NCBI GenBank assembly: GCA_038042445.1
Contig: JBBTED010000021.1
Coordinates: 68,085-132,084, forward strand
From: Candidatus Firestoneibacteriota bacterium
Lineage (GTDB): Bacteria > Oederibacteriota > D2-FULL-39-29 > JBBTED01
Reading direction: 5' to 3'
DNA length: 64,000 bases
Positions 1 to 13,070 of the stretch are shown one piece after another. A program made the position numbers and the translations under genes. The notes under the pieces were generated by a model. It saw only the letters and a list, made by a program, of their open reading frames with translations. It ran no database searches and was not told the DNA's origin. Positions within the stretch are counted from its first letter, which is position 1; each line of letters begins with the position of its first letter.

Positions 1-351
1 AGCTCTGCCATAACCTACTATATTCTGTTTTACCTGTATAGGAGTATATTCCTCTACATCTATACCTGAATTTGCAGCAGCAAGCATAATTACTCCTCTT
101 GCACAACTAACACTCATTGCAGTTTTTACATTTTGGCTAAAAAAAAGCTCTTCTATAGCCATTATTTCAGGCTTGTATTTTTTTATGAGTTTTTTAATAT
201 TGTCATAGATTTTTTTTAATCTGAGAGGCAGAGGTAAATCAGGCAAAGTTTTTATAACACCATACTCACAAAGTTTAAATTTATTATTTGTTGATTCTAT
301 TACTCCATATCCGGTAGTAGCAGTTCCAGGGTCTATTCCCAGAATAATCAT
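1..351 (-). CDS. ruvC: Crossover junction endodeoxyribonuclease RuvC (N-terminal 117 codons; gene runs off the window edge)
   Basis: Minus-strand translation from ATG at 351 gives MIILGIDPGTATTGYGVIES...IEELFFSQNVKTAMSVSCARG, typical RuvC. Not in the ORF track because it is truncated at position 1. Confidence 0.8.
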   Translation of the reverse strand, partial: MIILGIDPGTATTGYGVIESTNNKFKLCEYGVIKTLPDLPLPLRLKKIYDNIKKLIKKYKPEIMAIEELFFSQNVKTAMSVSCARGVIMLAAANSGIDVEEYTPIQVKQNIVGYGRA

Positions 352-1106
352 GCAGCAGTTTTTTCTCTCTCCTCAAGTATTTTCTCAGAAATATCAAAAT
401 TGCCGTATACTTGTTGAACATCATCATTTGCTTCTAAAGTATCTATTAAATTTAAAAGTTGATTAGCATCTTTACCTTCAACTGTTACATAGTTTTTTGG
501 AATCATTGTAATTTCAGATGTAGACATTTCAATCTTCTTTTCCTGTAATACTACTTTAACTTTGTCAAAATCTTCAGGTAAAGTTATTATTTCGTAAGAA
601 TCTTCCTCAATTTTCATATCTTCAGCACCTGCATCTAATACTATTGTCATCAATTCATCTTCAGCAATTTTATTCTTATCAACTGTTATATAACCTTTTC
701 TCTCAAACATCCAGGAAACACAACCGGATTCACCCATATTACCACCATTTTTTGAAAACATAGAACGAATTTCTGAAGCAGTTCTATTTTTATTATCAGT
801 TAAAGAATCAACCATAATTGCAATACCACCAGGACCATAGCCTTCATACCTGATTTCTTCATAATTTACTCCTTCAAGTTCTCCTGTCCCTTTTTGAATA
901 GCTCGCTTAATATTATCAGCAGGCATATTTACTTCTTTAGCTTTAGTTATTACCACCCGTAATCTGGCATTAGAATCTGGACTTCCTCCACCATTTTTTG
1001 CAGCAACAATTAATTCACGAACAAGTTTTGTAAAAATCCTACCTCTTTGTGAATCTATTAACCCTTTTTTCCTCTTAATAGTTGACCACTTTGAATGCCC
1101 CGACAT
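348..1106 (-). CDS. yebC: YebC/PmpR family DNA-binding transcriptional regulator
   Basis: 252 aa starting MSGHSKWSTIKRKKG...IRYEGYGPGG, diagnostic of the YebC family. Conserved yebC-ruvC arrangement; the stop overlaps the ruvC start. Confidence 0.9.
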   Translation of the reverse strand: MSGHSKWSTIKRKKGLIDSQRGRIFTKLVRELIVAAKNGGGSPDSNARLRVVITKAKEVNMPADNIKRAIQKGTGELEGVNYEEIRYEGYGPGGIAIMVDSLTDNKNRTASEIRSMFSKNGGNMGESGCVSWMFERKGYITVDKNKIAEDELMTIVLDAGAEDMKIEEDSYEIITLPEDFDKVKVVLQEKKIEMSTSEITMIPKNYVTVEGKDANQLLNLIDTLEANDDVQQVYGNFDISEKILEEREKTAA

Positions 1107-1175
1107 TTTTTTGCCTCCTCATAATCTTTATTTATGACTTCATACTATTTTTAGTTTGCTTCCCATCTGTAAATT

Positions 1176-1376
1176 TTAATGTCTACTCCTTCTCATTTCT
1201 TCCAAATCACCTTTCCAACAATTAACACCTTTTAGACTTATAATATCTTTTCTGTTTTTCCGTTTAACTAACTCTTCTAACGCAAAATTTATTAATTTCT
1301 TTTTGGTATTAAAACCTGTAATATTTAGTCCAATTTTTAATAATCTATCATCAATAACAATGTTAGTTATTCCCAT
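1176..1376 (-). CDS. VapB-like (DUF2191-type) type II antitoxin; no toxin gene adjacent
   Basis: 66 aa MGITNIVIDDRLLKIGLNITGFNTKKKLINFALEELVKRKNRKDIISLKG matches the VapB/DUF2191 antitoxin pattern. No PIN-domain or other toxin ORF between 1107 and 1175 or upstream. Confidence 0.55.
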   Translation of the reverse strand: MGITNIVIDDRLLKIGLNITGFNTKKKLINFALEELVKRKNRKDIISLKGVNCWKGDLEEMRRSRH

Positions 1377-1479
1377 ACATTTACCTCCTTTAACACATTA
1401 CACCAATTATTAACTTCTTTGTGTATTTTGTCAATTATTTTTTGTGTTTTTTGCCAATAAAATTATAAGAATTACAACA

Positions 1480-2244
<765 letters not shown>

Positions 2245-2427
2245 TGTCTAAAAATTTCACCTTAATTATCGCTTACGTACAACTATATTTCTGCGATTAT
2301 ATCCGTTTTACAATATTAACATAGACAATAAATATAAGTCATAATAAATTATTTACAAATATCAAGCATTACAATTATTTGCGAACATCCCCAGCTATTT
2401 GTGTTAACTTATGGTTCGCAAAATGCA
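2245..2427 (-). promoter_or_regulatory. CRISPR leader (AT-rich) between cas2 and the first repeat
   Basis: 183-nt AT-rich tract between the cas2 stop (2428) and the cas2-proximal repeat (ends 2244). Position and composition are typical of a leader. Confidence 0.6.
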
Positions 2428-2718
2428 TTAAATTATTAACGGCCCTTCTAAATCCACTATTTCTTTTGCTCCTATATGCTCTACCCTTCTTTTCCAATTT
2501 GAACCTAAAAAATAAAAACGAAGGCTGTCTTTCTTATCGTCAATTTCATCAATTAGTTTTTGCCGTAATACTGTCCATTGAGTAGGGTCAACGTTACATT
2601 CAAAAACTGAATACTGAACACGTTGCCCATAATTCAAACAAGTTTTAGCAACTCGACGTAAACGTTTCTGTCCGCCAACATCAGACGTCATAACATCATA
2701 ACTTACAATAACAAGCAT
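2428..2718 (-). CDS. cas2: CRISPR-associated endoribonuclease Cas2
   Basis: 96 aa MLVIVSYDV...RVQYSVFEC, Cas2 fold signature, directly downstream of cas1. Confidence 0.93.
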   Translation of the reverse strand: MLVIVSYDVMTSDVGGQKRLRRVAKTCLNYGQRVQYSVFECNVDPTQWTVLRQKLIDEIDDKKDSLRFYFLGSNWKRRVEHIGAKEIVDLEGPLII

Positions 2719-2730
2719 AATGTATACTCC

Positions 2731-3762
2731 TTATTTCCATATAAATACAGGATACCCATCTAAATCACCACGTAAAAATCGTGACAACAATAATGCCTGA
2801 ATATAAAACAATAAACCTACTGGAACCGTTTCTTTTATAAAGGGATGCATTATTTCCTCTTGTTTCCGTTTTTGATAAGCAACTAAAACGGTTTTACGAG
2901 TATCATCATCCATTAACACAGCCCCAGATTCTGATTTTTTGAATCCCTTCTTTTGAATTTGTTCACGATTAATCAAAGATAAAACTAAACGGTCAGCTAT
3001 AAATGGCCTAAATTCTTCCATTATGTCTAACGCTAATCCCGGACGTCCTGATCTATCTCTATGCATAAAACCAACATATGAATCTAAACCAACAGATTCT
3101 AATGCAGAACGTATATCATGCATTAAAAGTGTGTATAAAAAAGACAATAAACAGTTTACTTCATCTAATGGCGGTCGTCGATTTCTTTCTTCAAATTTAA
3201 AATCGTTTTTTTGGGCTACAATTAAATGGTCAAAAACATTAAAATACTTATGTGCAGCGTCTCCTTCAATTCCACGGAGGGTATCCAAATCTATTTTTCC
3301 TTCGAGCTGTCTCAAAGAAGATTTCAGAGATACAGATACGAAATTAATTTGATCTGAATTAATTTTATCGCTATGATCACGAAGTGCTCTTTCCAAAACA
3401 ACCCGGCTATTTGAAATTTTCCCGATTAAAATAGCTCTTGCTATCTCTGCAGAAAAATCCATATTATCCGCCTTGCGATAATGCTCACGTCTAAGTAAAA
3501 CATTCCCTGATGTTTTACCATGAACACGAGCTAAGAAATGTCCGTATTCTGTAAGAAAACTTATCGTTACATTATTTTCAGCACAAAAACCAAGTAAGAA
3601 AGGACTACACAGAACATTACCAAAACACACAATCCCGCCAAGTGTATGAACAGGAACCTGAAGCTTAACTTCTTTTTCAACTGAAACAACAACAGTCTCA
3701 CCTTCTTTGGAAAGATATGCACCCTGTGTTGTTATAAATAATGTGTTGAGATATTTTTTCAT
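2731..3762 (-). CDS. cas1: CRISPR-associated integrase Cas1 (type I-C)
   Basis: 343 aa with conserved Cas1 features (...GIEGDAAHKYF...; acidic/His active-site region); sits in the cas4-cas1-cas2 adaptation module. Confidence 0.93.
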   Translation of the reverse strand: MKKYLNTLFITTQGAYLSKEGETVVVSVEKEVKLQVPVHTLGGIVCFGNVLCSPFLLGFCAENNVTISFLTEYGHFLARVHGKTSGNVLLRREHYRKADNMDFSAEIARAILIGKISNSRVVLERALRDHSDKINSDQINFVSVSLKSSLRQLEGKIDLDTLRGIEGDAAHKYFNVFDHLIVAQKNDFKFEERNRRPPLDEVNCLLSFLYTLLMHDIRSALESVGLDSYVGFMHRDRSGRPGLALDIMEEFRPFIADRLVLSLINREQIQKKGFKKSESGAVLMDDDTRKTVLVAYQKRKQEEIMHPFIKETVPVGLLFYIQALLLSRFLRGDLDGYPVFIWK

Positions 3763-3913
3763 TTAGATTTCTCAAATTTATTCACACCTTCTATTTGCCT
3801 AAAGGACATTTTTAATTTGGCAGACAGTGTCTGCGAAATCTCTTTAGAAGATAAAGCTTTGCTCCCCTGTGTTTTTATAATAACAATTCTCCTCATTTAA
3901 TCCCCTACTAAAC

Positions 3914-4555
3914 CTATCCACCTTCAGAATTTTCAATTATTCCCTTAAGATAGTTACCCACCATTGTTCTTTTTCCACATACTTTTGGAAGACATATATT
4001 AACAAGTGAACATGAATCGCATTTGGAAGCATATAACGGTTTTGGAGTTTTGCCTTCTTTAATAAATTCATGCAAACGTAACGCTGTATCCTTTGTTTTC
4101 TGACGTAACAATTCATTAAATTCTATATCCAATCGATGTTTGGTTTTACCATAAAAAATTGCTCCAGACGGTATTTTTACATTCAGCATTTCCTCAAGAC
4201 ACAATGCTTGAGCACAAAGCTGAACTTTATCACAATCATCAGATTTAGGTTTTCCTCTTTTATATTCTATAGGAAATGGTATCCATCGTCCTTTTTCATC
4301 TTTTTGGAATTCCACAACATCTGCTTTCCCATTTAATCCAAACTCATTAGAACGCAGTGGAATACCTTGTTCAATTTTTACAGCTTTCCTTATCGCAATA
4401 TGCTCCTCATGAACCATATCATGCATAATCCTGCCTTCAGCTGTAAATAGATTTTCACCCCAAAGTTGCTCAATATGAATTAAAGCGCACTGCCTCCGGC
4501 AGAACACAAAATGCTGAAGCGCTGATAGTTGTAAAAAATCTTCTTCTTTAAACAT
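3914..4555 (-). CDS. cas4: CRISPR-associated exonuclease Cas4 (RecB-like nuclease, 4-Cys C-terminus)
   Basis: Start refined to ATG 4555, which overlaps the cas7 TAA. The track ORF extends to 4672, overlapping cas7. N-terminus [30 protein letters not shown] is the typical Cas4 start. C-terminal cysteines CDSC...C...C fit the Fe-S cluster. Confidence 0.88.
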
Positions 4556-5657
4556 TAACAATTTTAAAATTTTCATCGAGCTTTTTGCCATCAAGCTGAA
4601 CCTCATAATCAGAAAATTGGCGCGCTGGACCCTTTGTAGTTCGCTTACAATCAACTCTTCCAAATAACTCATTTGCAGGTTTATTTCCTAAAGCCGTATT
4701 ATGTTCAAATACAATAATATTACGAGTAGACATAAGCCCCCTCGCGGCTGAATGATCATGTTCAAACATTTCTTTTAATGCTTTCCAAAAAAGATCAAGA
4801 TCATCTTTAGAAAAACCTGTTTGCGCAGCCAGATGAGCGGAAATAAACCCGTGAGAACGATAGATACCATAGGGAATGGTAAACTTGCGCCCCATAGTAC
4901 GATTATCACCACTCTGCTTTTCGGCTTCGGCCTCTGTAGCTACTGCCATACGAGTAATACTATGTTCAAGAGCAACAACCGGCTCTACAGAACGCGCAAA
5001 AGTAAATTGAATGGGTCCGCGTACTTGCCCACAATTTGGTGCAGACTTCAATGACATAACTGCCCCAAATGTTCGCACGTCAAAGAAATTTTTGCACATC
5101 CAATCGCGTCCTTTTTCTACTTCATCCCCTTTAGGTTTCCTTGATTTGGCATCCTTCATTATTTTATTAATAAAATCTTTGATTTCTTTTGATGGCTTCG
5201 ACTCTTTGATATAAGTTTTTACCGCAGTCTTATCAACATCTGCGGCAACAACAAGATATTTTTTTCCAGTATCATCTTCGTCTATTATTAAACCTTCCGG
5301 TAAACTCCATTCTTCAAGTAAATCCACTAATTTTGAATCTGATATTTCTGCACGCGATTCTTGCCCCAAGGCAATCTTCAAATCATTAAATGCGGTAACA
5401 TGCGCCCTGCCAAGAACTGCTTTTTCTTTAATATAAATATCATAACCATTTTCTGGAATACCATCTTTAAATTTTGTTAATTGCACATAATTTCTTACTT
5501 TACGTTTTAAACATACATCAGTAACCAATCCCATACCAGTTTCCGCGTCAACACGCGGTAAATTTCCGGCATCTGGATCACCATTTGGATTTCCATCCTG
5601 AACATCAAAAAACAGAACAAAATCATAACGCTTATCAATCTTTTTATTGTCTTCCAT
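4548..5657 (-). CDS. cas7: Type I-C Cascade backbone protein Cas7c (Csd2)
   Basis: 369 aa [37 protein letters not shown], the hallmark Csd2/Cas7 N-terminus. Confidence 0.93.
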
Positions 5658-5683
5658 AAAATTTCTCCTTTTTTAAAGTTAAA

Positions 5684-7408
5684 TTATTGTTTATCTTTTT
5701 TTGTAAAATAATCCTGCCGCTCGTGATAATAACCCACAGCAAAACGAGCCTGTTCATCAAGCGTTAGATGCGACGGCAAATCATCCTTCAGGGCATCAAA
5801 AATTTCTCCGATTTCTTTTTCAAAATTCACTTTACGTCCAGGATTAAGTTTTGCCAGATGATGATTTTTCAGCTTAAGCAGTTGCGGAAAAACAGTTATA
5901 GGCGTCGCCGACACCGCGCCATAAAATCTATCGCGGATGGTCGCGTTAATCTTCGGGTTGGCTTCCTCCTGAATTTTTTCAAGCACAGCAAACAACCGCC
6001 CCAATCGATATGCCGTGTTTATGTTACTTCTGTCTAATGACATAAGCACCTCCTTTTCTGGTTTTTTATAAAATTTATTAAATCTGTTAATATAAGCTTT
6101 AAGAATCGCCGCGCGAACCCTTGTAACTTGTTGTTCAGCCCGAATACGACGGATACACTGCTGAAGCAATGTTTGCGGATACGGCGTTCCTTCAAGTATG
6201 CTGACAACAACCTGGCCAGCAAGATTTGGCGGGACATTATCCATTTTATAATCAAACGCTGTCGCGCTTAAAATTTTGAGTAACGGCATATATCTCTGAT
6301 ACTCTGGTTCATTATGCTCTAATTTCATCTCAAAATCTTCAAAATGTTGTTTTATTTTTTCTGCAAAATCGCGGATAGCACCGGTTTTCCAAAAACGCAC
6401 AGAAATACGCGCTGAGTTTGGCGCAAGCCCCAGAACATAAAAGCGATTGCCTTCGTCAAGAGGCAGTTTGCCGGAATGTAATGCCTCATATAAATTCTTA
6501 ACAGCCTTAACGCCTTTCTCAGGATCAGCTTTATCTGTTTTAAAATACCATCGGAAGTCAGCCTCAAAATCATATTTTTCAGATTGTTTTTGAGACCAGA
6601 AAAGCACTGTAGTGTCTGCAATTGATATTTTATTTTGTGAATCTTTTCCAAGTAACATATTTAAAGCAGTACTATAAGCAAATGCAACTTTTTCACTAAC
6701 AGGAGAATTATAACTTTGCTTCTTACCATAGGAATTAAACGCAGGAAGATTAAAAGAAACAATAGAAGCACCTTGAGTATTTGTTCCACGCACACCTTTT
6801 ATTGAAGAATGTAACCGTGCGATATTTGATATTTCCCCTGTCACACTGCAAATACTCTTTTGAACATTTTCATCAATGGAAAATTCTTTTTTTTCTTTTG
6901 GTAAAACATCGCAAATTGTTTGGAAATCGCTTCCTTCTATTTTAAAACTAACAAATGGATTAGATTCCAACATCTCTTTCCATGATTCACTTGAGCTATT
7001 TGATTTTTTTATCTGATCACTAGGTTGAGAATCAAGAAACTTAACAATAGCTTTAATATCACAATGATTAATTTTTGCATTTAAAATACGTTTTTTAAAA
7101 GCATCAAATCTTTCATGAACATCCTTACGATTTCTTGGATTGGCTCCCAATGCATACTCAATATTATCCCATAGTAAAAATGGTTTAATACCCGTTGTTC
7201 TTTTCTCTCCTTGCGGTACAAGAAATACATTTGCACGTTTCTTATTACCGTTTATTTGACGAGTGTCATTAATCCTTAAAAATTTACCCTCTTTATCAAT
7301 TACAACAAGAAATGGGATTTCTTTCCATTCCCAACCTTCAGGCGCTATTTTGCCTTCAGTATTAGCCGCTTTTCTTTGATAATATTCATACAATGCCTGT
7401 AAAATCAT
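5684..7408 (-). CDS. cas8c: Type I-C large subunit Cas8c (Csd1)
   Basis: 574 aa starting MILQALYEYYQRK, as in Csd1 family members. Its size and its position between cas5 and cas7 match I-C. Confidence 0.88.
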   Translation of the reverse strand: MILQALYEYYQRKAANTEGKIAPEGWEWKEIPFLVVIDKEGKFLRINDTRQINGNKKRANVFLVPQGEKRTTGIKPFLLWDNIEYALGANPRNRKDVHERFDAFKKRILNAKINHCDIKAIVKFLDSQPSDQIKKSNSSSESWKEMLESNPFVSFKIEGSDFQTICDVLPKEKKEFSIDENVQKSICSVTGEISNIARLHSSIKGVRGTNTQGASIVSFNLPAFNSYGKKQSYNSPVSEKVAFAYSTALNMLLGKDSQNKISIADTTVLFWSQKQSEKYDFEADFRWYFKTDKADPEKGVKAVKNLYEALHSGKLPLDEGNRFYVLGLAPNSARISVRFWKTGAIRDFAEKIKQHFEDFEMKLEHNEPEYQRYMPLLKILSATAFDYKMDNVPPNLAGQVVVSILEGTPYPQTLLQQCIRRIRAEQQVTRVRAAILKAYINRFNKFYKKPEKEVLMSLDRSNINTAYRLGRLFAVLEKIQEEANPKINATIRDRFYGAVSATPITVFPQLLKLKNHHLAKLNPGRKVNFEKEIGEIFDALKDDLPSHLTLDEQARFAVGYYHERQDYFTKKDKQ

Positions 7409-8595
7409 CGCCGCACCTCCTTATCCGTCTGGGGTTTTGGAATGGGTTGGTTCTGTTCCCAATAAGCGCGGTCGTTTTCAATTAAATGCTGGATTTCTTC
7501 AGGTTTGGGAAGCACAACCATATAGCGCGATACAAAAAGCTGATGATCCAAACCGCCGACTGCGTATTCAACTTTTGTCTGATCCTTATCCGTACACAGG
7601 ATTAATCCAATTGGCGGATTATCCCCTTCGGTCATCATTTGATCTTTCCAGTAATTAAGATAAAAATTCATCTGGCCGGCGTCGCCGTGCTGAAATCTTC
7701 TGATCTTCAGATCAATAAGCAGATGACAGCGAAGAATACGATGGTAAAAAACAAGGTCTATATAATCATTTTCATTACCAACTGTAATTCTCTTCTGCCG
7801 GGCTTCAAAACAAAATCCATTTCCCAGTTCAAGCAAAAATGATTGTAAGTGATTAAGAAGAGCATCTTCAAGCGTTGATTCATGATACTGTGATTTTTCC
7901 GCTAATCCGGTAAATTCCAGAACATACGGGTCGCGAATAATGTCTGCGATTGTCTGAGGCATTTCAATTGCCTGTTTTCTACCCGCTTCAATCACAGCTT
8001 TTTTATCTGTCGACAACCCCGTTCTTTCATAAAGAAGCGAACCAATTTGCCGCTGAAGCTGACGTTTGGACCAATTACCTTTTAAGCATTCATTTTCATA
8101 AAACGCGCGCTTCCATGGATCGTCAATAGATATCAGTTCTACAAAATGAGTCCATGATAAATTTATAAGAAATTTAACCGCAAGAGGTTTTGGTAATTTT
8201 AATTTTCCTGTGTCTAATTTGCTCACCGCTGGCGGGCATTTTGAAAACATATTTATATTTTTTGGCAAAACAAATAAGTTCACCGCTGGTGAGCATATTT
8301 GTTCAGCAATCTGCGGATACATCTGATAAAAAAGACGCATTCGTTGAAGCATCTGCCGGCTGCATCCGGCTATGTTCCGCTTTTGTAAATCAACGGATAA
8401 GCGTGACAACAAGCTCTCCCCATACTCAGCCCGGTCTTTACCTTTTTGTTCATACTCAATGATATATGCTCCAATAAGCCAGTTACGTAAAATAAGAAAG
8501 CGATTTACCGTTCCAGCCGCACCAGATTGAGCCTGCTTATGGACTTTGCTGATGGTATCTATCAATGCGGAATAATTCAATTTTTCAGATTTCAT
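7405..8595 (-). CDS. YhcG/DUF1016 family PD-(D/E)XK nuclease embedded in the cas operon
   Basis: About 396 aa. The N-terminal domain (RNWLIGAYIIEYEQKGKDRAEYGESLLSRLSVDLQ...RLFYQMYP) and middle domain (SWTHFVELISIDDPWKRAFYENECLKGNWSKRQLQRQI) match DUF1016_N. The C-terminal NDYIDLVFYHRILRCHLLIDLKIRRFQHGDAGQMNFYLNYW matches the YhcG nuclease core (DLLFYHR...IELK...GQ.NFYL). Start ATG 8595-8593 overlaps the cas5 TGA as ATGA. Stop TGA 7407-7405 overlaps the cas8c ATG as ATGA. Confidence 0.75.
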   Translation of the reverse strand: MKSEKLNYSALIDTISKVHKQAQSGAAGTVNRFLILRNWLIGAYIIEYEQKGKDRAEYGESLLSRLSVDLQKRNIAGCSRQMLQRMRLFYQMYPQIAEQICSPAVNLFVLPKNINMFSKCPPAVSKLDTGKLKLPKPLAVKFLINLSWTHFVELISIDDPWKRAFYENECLKGNWSKRQLQRQIGSLLYERTGLSTDKKAVIEAGRKQAIEMPQTIADIIRDPYVLEFTGLAEKSQYHESTLEDALLNHLQSFLLELGNGFCFEARQKRITVGNENDYIDLVFYHRILRCHLLIDLKIRRFQHGDAGQMNFYLNYWKDQMMTEGDNPPIGLILCTDKDQTKVEYAVGGLDHQLFVSRYMVVLPKPEEIQHLIENDRAYWEQNQPIPKPQTDKEVRR

Positions 8596-9344
8596 TTCCG
8601 CACCTCCTCGCTGTCCCATAAAGGAATAACTATTACACCATTATCTATCTTTGCCCGAAAAAATGCCGGCATTGGATTATTGATGTCTGTAAAATCCATG
8701 TCGTAAAGCATAAAACCGAGTTCTCTTGTTTCATCAATAGGCTTTTTTTCTTTTTTCGGTTCTTCAATCAGCCTGAACATACACGAAAATTCGCGGCAAC
8801 CCAAATAAGGACGATTGAAACATTGCCCTTTTCGCGCGCGGCGTTCAAACATCGCGTTATATTTTCCCGGATTTTCGTCTTTTGGATCCCCTTCAAACTC
8901 AGTTTTTTCTTCTTTATCAATCAAATACTCTGGAACAGGACTATAAGTTTTACTTCTTTTACCTAACGGTATAAATACAAGTTCCGCGTGTATTCGATAT
9001 TTAACATCCCTCAAAAAAAGCCCCGCGCGTTGTTGACGAACATCTTCGATGAAAAGTCCATCTGTTCGGTCGCTCATTACCGCGCCAACCTCATTGCGTC
9101 TTACAGATATCCATTTAATTGGATTTAACACTTCAATCTTTTTAACCTGCCATCTGATTGCCGGCTTCCAGAAAATCGCTTCAAAAATCGCCCGGCTGGC
9201 AGATGGCGTGATAACATCATAACTCACGCGTTCAACCTTCATCTCAGGCCGGGTAAAACAGGCGTAATCGCCCCAGACTTCAAGGCAAAAAGTTTTGTTA
9301 AAAAATGTAGACATATTTTCAATATCCTCCTTTCTAATAACCAT
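8592..9344 (-). CDS. cas5: Type I-C Cas5c (Cas5d) pre-crRNA processing subunit
   Basis: FCLEVWGDYACFTRPEMKVERVSYDVITPSA is the classic Cas5d N-terminal motif. An alternative start at M (9314) is possible. Confidence 0.9.
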   Translation of the reverse strand: MVIRKEDIENMSTFFNKTFCLEVWGDYACFTRPEMKVERVSYDVITPSASRAIFEAIFWKPAIRWQVKKIEVLNPIKWISVRRNEVGAVMSDRTDGLFIEDVRQQRAGLFLRDVKYRIHAELVFIPLGKRSKTYSPVPEYLIDKEEKTEFEGDPKDENPGKYNAMFERRARKGQCFNRPYLGCREFSCMFRLIEEPKKEKKPIDETRELGFMLYDMDFTDINNPMPAFFRAKIDNGVIVIPLWDSEEVRK

Positions 9345-9354
9345 ATTTTAGTAG

Positions 9355-11688
9355 TTAAAAAATAAATATTTCGCTGTCCCAATCCTTCGAATCCGGCAGA
9401 AGGCCTATACCTGGTTTGTAAAGCCCGGTTGCTTTCTGTACCCAGTAGCCGTGAATGTCTTCAATATAATCTCCACGCTTTAATTTTTCAAAAACCGGCA
9501 AAGGCACATTTACAATAAATCGCTGTAACTTTCTGATTATCCAACGTTCGGGTCCTTTGTTACGAAGATAATCGATAAAAGTCAGGCTGTTATTTCCCTT
9601 TCCTTGATACCAGACAATAATGCTTCTTTGAACTGTATCGTCTATAAGCCTTACATCCTGCGCAAAAGTGCGAAACTGGAATTTGAATTCTCCAGATTCT
9701 TTTACAAGTCTTTCTTGAAATTTTGGTTTGTCAAAATTATTTACATATCCATAAAAATTTTTAAAATATTCAGTATATAGAATTGGCTGTAAATCATGTA
9801 TAGGATAATTGCGTAAAACGCTTTTTGACGCATCCTCGCCCTTACGAAGAAGACCTGTAGGCGCTGACTTAGGCGGTTGAAAAACCACCATTTTACCCAT
9901 ACATCCCTCGTTATTTAATTTACCTTCACGATTACACCTGCCGGCCGCCTGAGCTATTGAATCCATGCCTGCTAAAGCACGATAAACAACTGGAAAATCA
10001 ATATCCACACCAGCTTCAACAAGCTGAGTGCTGACAACGCGGACAGGCTCACTATTTTTAAGTTTATGTTTAACTGACGATATAATTTCGCTTCGTTCTT
10101 CTCCGCACATATTTGCTGATAAATGTATCGTATCTTTCGGCATTAAAGCATGCAGATCGCGACAATCCTGACGTGTATTGACGATGCAAAGCACTTGTTC
10201 ATATTGCGCAAGCTGTTTCGCAACGTCAGGCCACTCCATACGTTCATCAAAATTTGGAGGTTCAATTTTAACTCTTTTGAATGACTTTGCAAGTTCCTCT
10301 GGATTGTCTATTATCTCAGTTACGTTTGACAGTCCTTCAAATACAGCCAGACCACTGCCGATTTTACCGCATAAAGCTGGCTGTGTAGCTGTACACAATA
10401 TAACCGTAACTCCAAAATATTTAACTAAACCGCGCAAAGTTGAAAGTATCGGTTCAAGATATTCCGGCGGCAACATTTGAGCTTCATCAAGAATAATAAC
10501 ACTATTAACAATATTATGTAATTTCCTGCATGACGATGTACGAAAAGCAAGCAATGATTCAAAAAGCTGGACATTAGTGGTAACTATTATAGGCACATCC
10601 CAGTTTTCAGAAGCAAGCCTGCTTTTATTATCTTCCTTATCCGGGTCAATATTACTGTGATGTTCAAGCACTGAATCCTCTCCAAATAATATATTTCCAC
10701 TTTTAATCGATTCAATAATTTTTTCTTCATCATCAGTTCCATATTTATAAACTTTTGCTGTTTGCTCAATTATACTTGTATATGGTATAGCCATAATAAT
10801 CCGCTGTTTACCATATTTTAACGCATGTTCCAAAGCAAAGGCCATTGAAGAAAGAGTTTTTCCCCCGCCAGTTGGAACAGTAAGAGAGAAAAATCCCGGA
10901 GATAATACTGCTTTTTTGCGACAAGTATCAAGTATAATGTTACGCTGTTTATTAATCTGTTCAGAAAAATCTTTTTTATTTTCCATAAACCGGTCAAAAC
11001 GTTCTTTTAAGGTTTTAATAGTTGGATAATTTCCACGAAGAGCAATTTTATTTTTATCCGATTCCATAAAAATTTCCGTATTAAGGAAATCCGCGTCTAC
11101 AAGGCATGAAAATAGCATTCGTATCCAGAGATGAAAAAATTCTTTACGATTTTCCATATCCTCCGGTTGTGATATATTAAGCGGTGTGGATTTTGGTAAA
11201 TTCTTATTAATAAACTCCTGCGATTGCTCAATTAAATTAATTTGGTCAAATTCTTTTTTATTTAAAATCCCTGAAAGCGGATCTGAATAAATACGATTAA
11301 TTAAATCACCACCTGCATTATCAGGACTCCAATCCGGCAATCCTGCATGATGACCAGCAACAATATAAGCAATAATCCGAGCAATAGCAGGATTTTTTAT
11401 GCGTGAAAATGCCAGAACTGCTCCAACGGTACTATGATTTGGACGCCATCCATAACCTTCTATATGTGCGTCTTCATCATATCCTGATGCTTTAGAAAGA
11501 TGTTTTTGCCAATCAGGAAGATATTTTCCCATATCATGCCAAAACCCCACAAGTTCAGCCCAATCTTGATTGCCAAATTCAGATGCGAATTCTTTTGCCT
11601 TTTTTGCTGTTTCATCAAGATGTTCTTTTATAGTCTGAGTTTCCCATTGTCCTAGTTCGTTTTTCTTTACATGTGCAAAATCTTTCAT
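9355..11688 (-). CDS. cas3: CRISPR-associated helicase/HD nuclease Cas3
   Basis: N-terminal HD domain (WHDMGKY...HSTVGA...AGHHAGL) followed by a DEAD/DEAH helicase (TGGGKT Walker A, DEAQ). Start taken at MKDFAHV (11688) to avoid overlap with the upstream gene; the track ORF extends to 11766. Confidence 0.9.
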   Translation of the reverse strand: MKDFAHVKKNELGQWETQTIKEHLDETAKKAKEFASEFGNQDWAELVGFWHDMGKYLPDWQKHLSKASGYDEDAHIEGYGWRPNHSTVGAVLAFSRIKNPAIARIIAYIVAGHHAGLPDWSPDNAGGDLINRIYSDPLSGILNKKEFDQINLIEQSQEFINKNLPKSTPLNISQPEDMENRKEFFHLWIRMLFSCLVDADFLNTEIFMESDKNKIALRGNYPTIKTLKERFDRFMENKKDFSEQINKQRNIILDTCRKKAVLSPGFFSLTVPTGGGKTLSSMAFALEHALKYGKQRIIMAIPYTSIIEQTAKVYKYGTDDEEKIIESIKSGNILFGEDSVLEHHSNIDPDKEDNKSRLASENWDVPIIVTTNVQLFESLLAFRTSSCRKLHNIVNSVIILDEAQMLPPEYLEPILSTLRGLVKYFGVTVILCTATQPALCGKIGSGLAVFEGLSNVTEIIDNPEELAKSFKRVKIEPPNFDERMEWPDVAKQLAQYEQVLCIVNTRQDCRDLHALMPKDTIHLSANMCGEERSEIISSVKHKLKNSEPVRVVSTQLVEAGVDIDFPVVYRALAGMDSIAQAAGRCNREGKLNNEGCMGKMVVFQPPKSAPTGLLRKGEDASKSVLRNYPIHDLQPILYTEYFKNFYGYVNNFDKPKFQERLVKESGEFKFQFRTFAQDVRLIDDTVQRSIIVWYQGKGNNSLTFIDYLRNKGPERWIIRKLQRFIVNVPLPVFEKLKRGDYIEDIHGYWVQKATGLYKPGIGLLPDSKDWDSEIFIF

Positions 11689-11699
11689 TTTAAACCTTT

Positions 11700-13070
11700 T
11701 TACCCTACGATGCCGTAGGTTCTTTGTTTGAAATCTACGGCTAATTCTTTGGCTATGTTCTTGCATTGTTCTATATCTACTGATGGTGCATCAACAGCAG
11801 TAACTACAACTTTTGGGATATGTTTTTTGCATTCCAGGATAAACTTTTTCATTTCATCATAAATAGAAACAGATTGCGCAAATTGACTCTGACAAAGTTT
11901 GTCATACTTGTCAGCAGTATCTGTATTTAAACTTATTGAAATTGTATCTATATACCTCGCAAGTTCTGGAACTATATTCCTATTATGTATCATATTTCCA
12001 TGACCATTAGTATTTATTCGCAAACGAATTCCTTTTGCCTTGAAAATTTTAGCGCTTTCCAAAATCAAATTCAAACGTATAAGAGGTTCTCCATATCCGC
12101 AATAAACTATTTCATCATAGTCATTTGGATTTTTCACCTCATTCATTATATCCTCAATTGTTGGTTCACGCTTTAATCTAAGATTATGACCTCGAACAAA
12201 ATCACTGTTATACCTCGCGCAAAATGTACAAGTATTTGAACAACGATTTGTTATATTTAAATATAATGAATTACGAATTTTATAAGATATTTTACTTGCT
12301 TCTTCAACACCAACTCTAAATAGATATTTCGCATTTATTGTTGTCCAATGTTCAACTTCAGCTAATTCTATGTTTTTAAGTTCTGCTATTTTTTGGGCTA
12401 CCTCTACAATATATGATGGCTCATTTCTCATACCTCTTTTAGATTGTGGAGGAAGATATGGAGCATCTGTTTCAAGTATTATCCTATAAATAGGTAATAG
12501 TTTTATTGTACTTTGCAATTTGACAGAATTAGGATAAGTGATTGTTCCTCCAATTGAGAAATAAAAACCCATATCCAAACATTCTTTCATCATCATCTCA
12601 TTGCCTGAAAAACAATGTAAAACTCCACCTATTTCCTGCGCATTTTCTTCTTTTAAGATTCTCAAAACATCGTTATGGGCATCTCTATCATGGACAACAA
12701 TTGGAAGTGCCAATTTATGCGCTAATTTTATCTGTGCCCTAAAATTTTTCTCCTGAGCTTCTTTTGAAGTAGTGCTTCTATAGTAATCCAACCCAGTTTC
12801 ACCAATTGCTACAACTTTTGGATTTTTGCCAAGAGCAAAAAACTTATCATAAGTTTCCTCTGACATAGTATTGGCATAATGCGGATGCACACCTATTGTT
12901 GTATAAATATTCTCGTATTTTTCAGATAAAGCAATGGATTGAATACTACTTTCAAGACAAGTGCCTATATTTACCAAATAATCTACACCTGATTCTTTTG
13001 CCCTGCGAATAACATCCTCGCGGTCAGAATCGTATTTTTTATCTTCTAAATGTATGTGTGTATCAATCAT
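11700..13070 (-). CDS. TatD-family metal-dependent DNase fused to a TatD-associated radical SAM domain
   Basis: N-terminus MIDTHIHLED...GETGLDYY...ETDAPYL is TatD hydrolase. The C-terminal half has the radical SAM motif CSNTCTFCAR and a glycine-rich SAM-binding region. Both fused in one 456-aa ORF. Confidence 0.75.
   Translation of the reverse strand: MIDTHIHLEDKKYDSDREDVIRRAKESGVDYLVNIGTCLESSIQSIALSEKYENIYTTIGVHPHYANTMSEETYDKFFALGKNPKVVAIGETGLDYYRSTTSKEAQEKNFRAQIKLAHKLALPIVVHDRDAHNDVLRILKEENAQEIGGVLHCFSGNEMMMKECLDMGFYFSIGGTITYPNSVKLQSTIKLLPIYRIILETDAPYLPPQSKRGMRNEPSYIVEVAQKIAELKNIELAEVEHWTTINAKYLFRVGVEEASKISYKIRNSLYLNITNRCSNTCTFCARYNSDFVRGHNLRLKREPTIEDIMNEVKNPNDYDEIVYCGYGEPLIRLNLILESAKIFKAKGIRLRINTNGHGNMIHNRNIVPELARYIDTISISLNTDTADKYDKLCQSQFAQSVSIYDEMKKFILECKKHIPKVVVTAVDAPSVDIEQCKNIAKELAVDFKQRTYGIVG

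Follow-up and report, generated by a model that had tools for sequence, protein, structure and literature searches.

A YhcG/DUF1016 family nuclease that recurs under selection in type I CRISPR effector operons

The YhcG/DUF1016 family (PF17761 and PF06250, COG4804; PDC-S02) is uncharacterised (PMC1189080), and its members co-occur with type I restriction-modification (R-M) systems and mobile elements (PMC3424549). Among CRISPR-linked genes, PD-DExK cluster 45, whose representative is Marme_0670, was described as a type III accessory by Shah et al. 2018 (PMC6546367) and is linked to III A/B/D cassettes and to a reverse transcriptase (RT)-Cas1 operon (PMC6546367, PMC5576922); Marme_0670 is a gene of unknown function that stands with RT-cas1 and cas2 in the III-B adaptation operon of M. 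mediterranea (PMC5576922). According to a survey of CRISPR-linked genes, most accessory candidates belong to type III and very few to type I (10.1101/270033). Our literature searches for DUF1016, YhcG or COG4804 together with CRISPR turned up no paper that describes a link to type I. Here we analysed 64,000 nucleotides (nt) from a Candidatus Firestoneibacteriota bacterium (contig JBBTED010000021.1, positions 68,085 to 132,084 of the forward strand; this whole stretch is called the window, and positions are counted from its first letter), in which a yhcG gene is nested between cas5c and cas8c of a type I-C CRISPR-Cas operon. We found a link between this known family and type I CRISPR effector operons that recurs, is kept under selection and had not been described before.

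Nested genes are familiar from other defence operons, such as the PrrC anticodon nuclease in the EcoprrI hsd operon, BrxU in bacteriophage exclusion (BREX) operons and CreTA, which guards the Cascade genes. The window gene resembles them in being a toxic or nucleolytic gene inside, and co-transcribed with, a multi-subunit DNA-targeting operon, and like PrrC it is encoded inside the operon of the system that it would guard; YhcG has no homology to PrrC, BrxU or CreT, and the likeness is one of logic only. A clade of nucleases under selection in the I-C and I-G effector operons of several phyla would count among the few accessories of type I, and it gives the uncharacterised YhcG/DUF1016 (PDC-S02) family a defined setting that is open to experiment. 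I-C is a compact system and already in use as a genome-editing tool.

The yhcG gene, its product and its junctions

The yhcG open reading frame (ORF; 7405..8595, minus strand) starts with ATG at 8595, stops with TGA at 7405-7407 and encodes a YhcG/DUF1016 PD-(D/E)XK nuclease of 396 amino acids (aa), which is 100% identical to P0001, a 396-aa protein annotated by NCBI in a Candidatus Firestonebacteria metagenome-assembled genome (MAG). Pfam placed DUF1016_N (PF17761; 1.6e-34, 119.4 bits against a cutoff of 32.8) on the helical N-terminal region, residues 15-191 (8023..8553, minus strand), and YhcG_C (PF06250; 3.7e-57, 193 bits against a cutoff of 32.5) on the PD-(D/E)XK nuclease domain, residues 218-370 (7486..7944, minus strand). 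The nuclease domain has E256, D280, D295-x-K297 and Q308, with the motifs IDLVFYHR (D280), IDLK (D295, K297) and GQMNFYL (Q308); in an alignment of 79 homologs reaching down to 34% identity, E256, D280, K297 and Q308 are invariant and position 295 is either D or E. The E...D...(D/E)xK catalytic signature of PD-(D/E)XK enzymes is present in the window protein, the E-D-(D/E)xK active site of the family having been predicted by Kosinski et al. 2005 (PMC1189080), and the C-terminal domain has the features of a restriction-endonuclease-like fold. Judged by its sequence, YhcG is an intact two-domain protein with a predicted catalytically competent nuclease core; the C-terminal domain is a putative Mg2+-type PD-(D/E)XK nuclease domain and the helical N-terminal region is possibly a DNA-binding domain of ParB-like type. 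An earlier sequence-only reading of the window had named this family and called the nuclease core intact, and in both respects it was right; its three-domain architecture did not hold, since Pfam gives two domains and a clade-specific insertion of ~40 aa. We rejected an upstream in-frame ATG at 8619 (404 aa) as the start: the added MGQRGG is no more than the end of cas5 read in another frame, and homologs begin at the 8595 position. The same MGQRGG also precedes cas8c in one related I-C locus (L085).

The insertion breaks the DUF1016_N region at residues ~96-139 (8179..8310, minus strand; about 40-44 aa) and contains three copies of a short P-x-V motif (CSPAVN, CPPAVS and KPLAVK), two of them encoded by small palindromes (CACCAGCGGTGA, CGCCAGCGGTGAG). 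Alignments showed it in the cas-linked YhcG clade described below and in the sisters of that clade, and absent from canonical YhcG. The copy number of the motif (P-x-V / QPVVAE) ranges from 1 to 5 across the clade, and the homologs P0079, P0122 and P0125 have expanded insertions with up to about five copies (xQPVVAE). An AlphaFold2 model of YhcG built with 65 close homologs reached a predicted local distance difference test score (pLDDT) of 57 and was discarded; after homologs of ~35% identity were added the score was 70.5, with the insertion below 50. A sequence search of the PDB with YhcG gave no matches, and the list from a profile search with the mixed alignment A2 stayed within the same YhcG clade.

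PADLOC matched the protein to PDC-S02 (model PDLC04807, 2.8e-133, coverage near full-length) and to the 'PD_DExK, CAS-associated' profile PDLC01464 (2.1e-36, profile positions 1-126 of 126, protein residues 148-295), which we take to have been built from the Marme_0670 cluster. The proposal of a new system was thus too strong, the family being already a PADLOC candidate and the protein matching a catalogued CRISPR-associated profile. With YhcG/DUF1016 at large, the window protein shares both Pfam domains, the active site and the PDC-S02 match, but it belongs to a sub-clade that has the repeat-bearing insertion and is found mainly inside type I cas operons. With the type III 'PD-DExK' accessory it shares the match over the full 126 profile positions, and a close homolog (80% identity, locus L002, tail EEVQR and stop, then the relic ATGATTTT) lies directly after Cmr genes; the type III accessory is linked to III A/B/D cassettes and the RT-Cas1 operon, whereas the window gene is part of a I-C effector module. 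Cas4 is also a PD-(D/E)XK nuclease of the same operon, but YhcG differs from it in its N-terminal domain, its position in the effector module and the absence of a Cas_Cas4 match (PF01930/DUF83), which the separate cas4 of the operon (3914-4672) does have.

The gene is flanked by cas5c (8592..9344, minus strand; Pfam Cas_Cas5d 9.9e-31, PADLOC Cas5c 4.2e-73) and cas8c (Csd1; 5684..7408, minus strand; Pfam Cas_Csd1 1.1e-180, PADLOC Cas8c 5.7e-173), and the two overlaps noted in the sequence-only reading are both there: the cas5 stop (8592-8594) and the yhcG ATG (8593-8595) share one ATGA, and the yhcG stop (7405-7407) and the cas8c ATG (7406-7408) share another. Junction 1 (8592..8609, minus strand; GAGGAGGTGCGGAAATGA) comprises the Cas5 tail EEVRK with its stop, a Shine-Dalgarno sequence (SD) and the yhcG ATG within ATGA; junction 2 (7405..7422, minus strand; AAGGAGGTGCGGCGATGA) comprises the YhcG tail KEVRR with its stop, an SD and the cas8c ATG within ATGA. 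Among 86 Cas5c genes, 84 end in [AG]TGA and 79 have an SD-like GGAGG/GAGGT just upstream, and the consensus tail S-E-E-V-R-K plus stop (GAGGAGGTGCGnAAATGA) is followed directly by ATGATTTTACAGG, the cas8c start MILQ. Because 84 of the 86 Cas5 genes carry it, the ATGA overlap is the native device that couples cas5 to cas8c; being inherited from that junction, the overlaps alone do not prove integration of yhcG.

At the cas5 junction the yhcG start takes the place of cas8c (SD GGAGGTG), and the yhcG 3' end (AAGGAGGTGCGGCGATGA followed by TTTTACAGG), which encodes KEVRR and stop, puts a second copy of the device before cas8c. The duplicated junction tail is also present in L001, L019, L002 and L003, and in L002 and L003/L004, from which cas8c itself is gone, YhcG still ends in EV[QR]x and stop, with relics of the start of cas8c (ATGATTTT; MILQA) after it. 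From the second junction copy and these relics it follows that yhcG is a derived insertion. Such an insertion would have copied the last ~16-18 nt of cas5 (SD GGAGGTG and ATGA), regenerating the junction downstream; a copied cas5 end would then be the reason why the cas5 stop overlaps the yhcG start and why the Cas5-like YhcG tail supplies cas8c with its SD and ATGA. Either duplication or convergence on the SD may have produced the second copy, and with both origins the pattern points to selection for keeping cas8c translation coupled. The YhcG tail (EVRR and stop) is predicted to serve as the ribosome-binding site of cas8c, so that a nuclease tail would have been recruited to drive cas8c translation, which is notable; even for a selfish gene, a junction-duplicating entry into a coupled operon without breaking the coupling is instructive.

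Recurrence and selection across type I operons

The cas5-yhcG-cas8c order also occurs in diverged loci (L001, L006-L008, L015/L168 and L019, L168 being from a Verrucomicrobia MAG), with relics in L002 and L003, so that a survey for this order, as the sequence-only reading had proposed, does find it elsewhere. In L001 (GCA_017973895.1) the operon reads cas3-cas5-yhcG-cas8c-cas7 with both ATGA overlaps kept, and amino-acid identity to the window is 69% for Cas3, 78% for Cas5, 84% for YhcG, 56% for Cas8c and 79% for Cas7. For L006-L008, L015 and L019 the corresponding values are 66-67% for YhcG, 66-68% for Cas5 and 48-68% for Cas8c. The dN/dS ratio (NG86) of yhcG is 0.12 against 0.05-0.19 for the cas genes, and a sliding comparison of the window with L001 at the nucleotide level puts the identity of yhcG somewhat higher (~84% versus ~73%), with no sharp recombination block. 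The GC content of yhcG equals that of its neighbours, and the GC profile has neither a discontinuity nor a foreign block. Reading frames are intact in nearly all yhcG homolog loci, few copies being split or degenerate (L017, L049/L050 and L084); in ten high-GC loci the ORF seemed to be absent, which proved to be an artefact of ORF picking, the frames being intact. By these measures yhcG appears as a maintained operon member, neither a passive nor a fresh neutral insertion, and as a gene under purifying selection that has partly co-diverged with the cas genes. The earlier claim that it is an integral part of the operon is therefore borne out by recurrence, intact frames, dN/dS and even GC, and not by the ATGA overlaps, which are the standard cas5/cas8c junction. 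Sporadic presence with broken frames had been named as the pattern of a recent neutral insertion; presence is indeed sporadic, and the frames are not broken.

Two Omnitrophota MAGs (L002:2821-4736 and L087:4657-6083) have a pair of Cas5c (80-81% identity) and YhcG split off from the rest of I-C, and these pairs adjoin Cmr genes or another type I module.

We screened 80 metagenome loci with YhcG proteins 51-76% identical to that of the window, using the window Cas proteins, neighbour-gene clustering and Pfam. Besides the I-C order described above, the clade shows yhcG before cas3-cas5-cas8-cas7, between cas3 and cas5 (a divergent I-C-like group), between cas3 and cas8u2-Cas_GSU0053 (type I-G, confirmed by Cas_GSU0053 and Cas3 matches), and before a cas4-cas1 fusion; embedded members are on the same strand as the cas genes and tightly spaced. 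For 20 unique metagenome loci the flanks extend 1.5 kb or more in both directions and YhcG identity is about 61% or higher; cas genes (I-C, I-G, next to cas3) lie within 3 genes in 16 of them, and a same-strand cas gene is directly adjacent in 11. Below ~61% identity, cas genes are as close in 3 of 7 loci. A separate sample of four homologs on long contigs comprised one in I-C, two in I-G and one stand-alone gene (3/4 cas-linked), and cas neighbours were found in 0/3 long contigs of the canonical YhcG clade (~35% identity) and in 0/3 plasmid contexts. In these small samples, recurrent placement in or next to cas cassettes is thus a property of the clade.

A neighbour-joining tree gathers the cas-linked copies into a crown group; its basal sisters are flanked by a DUF1156 methyltransferase and a PLD-SNF2 helicase, a DISARM-like arrangement. 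Distances of YhcG and of the adjacent Cas3 are correlated (Mantel r = 0.42, p = 0.0005), and the phylogenetic pattern indicates partial co-inheritance with cas together with apparent movement between type I subtypes. The YhcG clade looks like a conserved yet optional CRISPR accessory gene in type I operons of several phyla. Small ORF6N (KilA-N/Bro-like) genes recur beside YhcG (L001:194-811, L031:9474-9983, L032, L052, L063 and L172:6029-6253), and do so in both cas-linked and stand-alone contexts.

Candidate roles of the nuclease

The sequence-only reading had offered an accessory effector, an abortive-infection nuclease and a selfish nuclease, and each is still a candidate. In the reading that we favour, YhcG would be made in step with the Cascade subunits and would be an ancillary DNA nuclease, optional but linked in function to type I interference, and not a structural subunit of Cascade. 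In the version that we prefer it would serve as a second line or back-up and cut DNA beside Cas3 or when Cascade-Cas3 is blocked, the same guard-type logic as for genes nested in restriction operons. An operon-integrated ancillary nuclease with a back-up or guard-type or co-effector role, taken as one combined reading, is our tentative first choice, with a probability that falls a little short of an even balance. We prefer it because the clade favours Cas3-containing systems across non-homologous positions, which would be hard to explain for an autonomous enzyme. Independent insertions of YhcG-family genes in I-C operons, one between cas5 and cas8c (L141) and one between cas7 and cas4 (L088), speak in the same direction. 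Its more specific form, that the clade docks on Cascade/Cas3 for a second DNA cleavage at the R-loop or as a back-up (guard) nuclease triggered by anti-CRISPRs, is doubtful; if it were true, type I would, like type III, possess accessory nucleases coupled to its effector.

Several observations weigh against an ancillary role in interference. Seen from the cas side, in a sample of 80 species-representative I-C loci with Cas5 identity of 60-85%, cas5 abuts cas8c in 71 of 72 comparable operons, and a guest of at least 100 aa occupies this junction in 1 of the 72, so that yhcG is not near-universal in the subtype as a core Cascade subunit is. The sole exception is L141, in which the guest is a distant YhcG-like gene (32% identity) that seems to have entered this junction independently. 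There is no yhcG in L085, whose Cas5 is the closest relative (85% identity), and in a Cas5+Cas7 tree the yhcG-positive I-C loci fall into two separated clades; on the cas-side counts and this tree, yhcG is an optional gene of rare and patchy occurrence that has repeatedly been gained or lost. Related I-C operons without a yhcG of the window's clade are L085, L086 and L088-L091, while L087 has cas5-yhcG of this clade at a contig end. Two comparisons hint at mobility between operons: yhcG has a dS of 0.73, roughly half the values for the cas genes on either side (1.5-2.1), and YhcG proteins are 56-91% identical where the neighbouring Cas3 proteins are 24-76% identical. Cas-YhcG fusions, sought among over-long homologs, were not found, those proteins being tandem YhcG copies or expanded linker repeats. 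The single PDC-S02 representative tested gave no protection against T4, T5 or T7 (10.1101/2024.09.26.614923). Distant YhcG homologs also occur alone or in BREX or DISARM-like operons: one is nested inside BREX-1 on the Methylomonas koyamae plasmid pLM6 (L166, NZ_CP023670.1 66722-67879; between pglX and pglZ, with tight junctions), and others lie between the DUF1156 methyltransferase and the PLD-SNF2 helicase (L061, L067, L072 and L079). Nesting in BREX, DISARM-like and type I R-M operons together with stand-alone copies speaks more for a generic lifestyle as a nested gene than for a partnership specific to Cas, and repeated nesting in these and in CRISPR operons would give the family a general role beside multi-subunit DNA-targeting immunity, as guard, helper or parasite.

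Two of the loci just named deserve a remark. In the Fibrobacteraceae I-C operon of L141 (3125-6614) two guests are nested by way of 4-nt overlaps: the YhcG-like gene, which is N-terminally short (296 aa), and, between cas3 and cas5, an abortive-infection gene of the AIPR type. In L085 (1268-2958) cas8c appears split or truncated, with a 355-aa ORF and then a gap before cas7, which may be due to a frameshift or an assembly error.

The generic lifestyle leads to the rival that survives best, an autonomous nested defence nuclease, restriction-like or modification-dependent, for which the cas operon is a well-expressed, co-mobilised home and which would give complementary immunity without contact to Cascade/Cas3. 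We regard it as somewhat unlikely, with several facts on its side: the family is a PADLOC candidate, its homologs nest in BREX, DISARM-like and type I R-M operons (PMC3424549) or stand alone, I-C operons host other guests as well (AIPR, Fic/DOC, PIN, Bro-N and IS200), and the combination of a DNA-binding domain with PD-(D/E)XK resembles single-chain restriction enzymes. That the crown clade leans so strongly to type I cas operons, in different subtypes and at different positions, would be unexpected for such an enzyme, however; the negative PDC-S02 test counts against it too, and insertion within the effector module with coupling kept is more intimate than the usual co-location in defence islands.

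The hints of mobility fit a selfish hitch-hiker or addiction-type gene, which would spread by short-homology recombination at the cas5/cas8c junction or as a cas3-yhcG unit and bring no benefit to CRISPR. Patchiness across phyla and cas clades, direct repeats of the conserved junction flanking yhcG, the low dS, the conservation of YhcG far above that of the associated Cas3, the abundance of the family on plasmids (511 records) and the few degenerate or split copies all agree with it. Nevertheless, this reading seems unlikely in view of strong purifying selection and frames intact in nearly all loci, and the scaling of YhcG identity with cas identity down to about 66% implies long residence. 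Classic homing is made less likely by a junction that is regenerated whole downstream, so that the target site is not destroyed, and by clade members in at least 4 different cas-operon positions; the family is also rare in phages (14 records).

A helper of adaptation, a Cas4-like PD-(D/E)XK enzyme that would trim Cas3-generated fragments or prespacers for (primed) spacer acquisition, is suggested by L018, where yhcG directly precedes the cas4-cas1 fusion and cas2, by Marme_0670 with its RT-cas1 and cas2 neighbours in the III-B adaptation operon (PMC6546367, PMC5576922), and by the frequent adjacency of yhcG to cas3. It is very unlikely, as the window and most other loci have their own cas4, YhcG has no Cas4 Pfam match, and in I-C the gene lies in the effector and not the adaptation module. 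Least credible of all is that YhcG is an obligatory new Cascade subunit or, in this variant of I-C, stands in for the HD nuclease of Cas3. Although the gene sits inside the effector module with translation coupled to Cas5 and Cas8c, closely related I-C operons do without it, the full standard I-C gene set is present and Cas3 keeps its HD domain (Cas3_HD 5.3e-7, HD 2.3e-5), on which ground we rejected YhcG as a substitute for a dead Cas3 nuclease.

The host locus and its guests

The locus in the window, identified with the ORF listing, Pfam and PADLOC, is a complete type I-C CRISPR-Cas system on the minus strand in the order cas3, cas5c, yhcG, cas8c, cas7, cas4, cas1, cas2 and array; all seven cas genes of the subtype were matched in Pfam and PADLOC, and there is no cas6. 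Upstream of cas5c, cas3 (9355..11766, minus strand) encodes the HD nuclease and helicase, with DEAD and Cas3-like_C_2 matches in addition to the two HD matches given above. Downstream of cas8c are cas7 (4548..5657; Cas_Cas7 2.7e-101), cas4 (3914..4672; Cas_Cas4 2.8e-23), cas1 (2731..3762; Cas_Cas1 4.6e-106) and cas2 (2428..2718; CRISPR_Cas2 4.6e-27), all on the minus strand. The array (~1480..2244, minus strand), found by repeat search, has 12 copies of the repeat GTCGCGCCCCGCGTGGGCGCGTGGATTGAAAC (minus strand) with a period of 66-67 nt; at 32 nt the repeat is typical of I-C. An Rfam scan of window positions 1-13000 gave no matches, and scans for promoters and terminators gave no excess over shuffled expectation and no sign of an internal transcription unit.

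Canonical I-C operons had been said to contain no extra genes, which does not agree with what we found: 17 of 60 comparable I-C operons have guests between cas7 and cas4, namely Bro-N (~280 aa), Fic/DOC and PIN toxins and IS200-type Y1 transposases. The boundary of the effector and adaptation modules (cas7-cas4) is a common landing site. Examples among loci L085-L164 are L086:3564-4412, L157:11797-12693, L125:12624-13046 and L118:11533-11967, and in L088 it is the YhcG-like gene mentioned above that lies there.

In the window itself the longest cas4 ORF (3914-4672) shares 125 nt with cas7 (4548-5657), and the true cas4 start is probably an internal ATG downstream of the first one. Immediately upstream of cas3, a 456-aa ORF (11700-13070, minus strand) shares 67 nt with the start of cas3; its N-terminus resembles a TatD-type hydrolase, and to this a radical-SAM-like C-terminus with CxxxCxxC appears to be fused.

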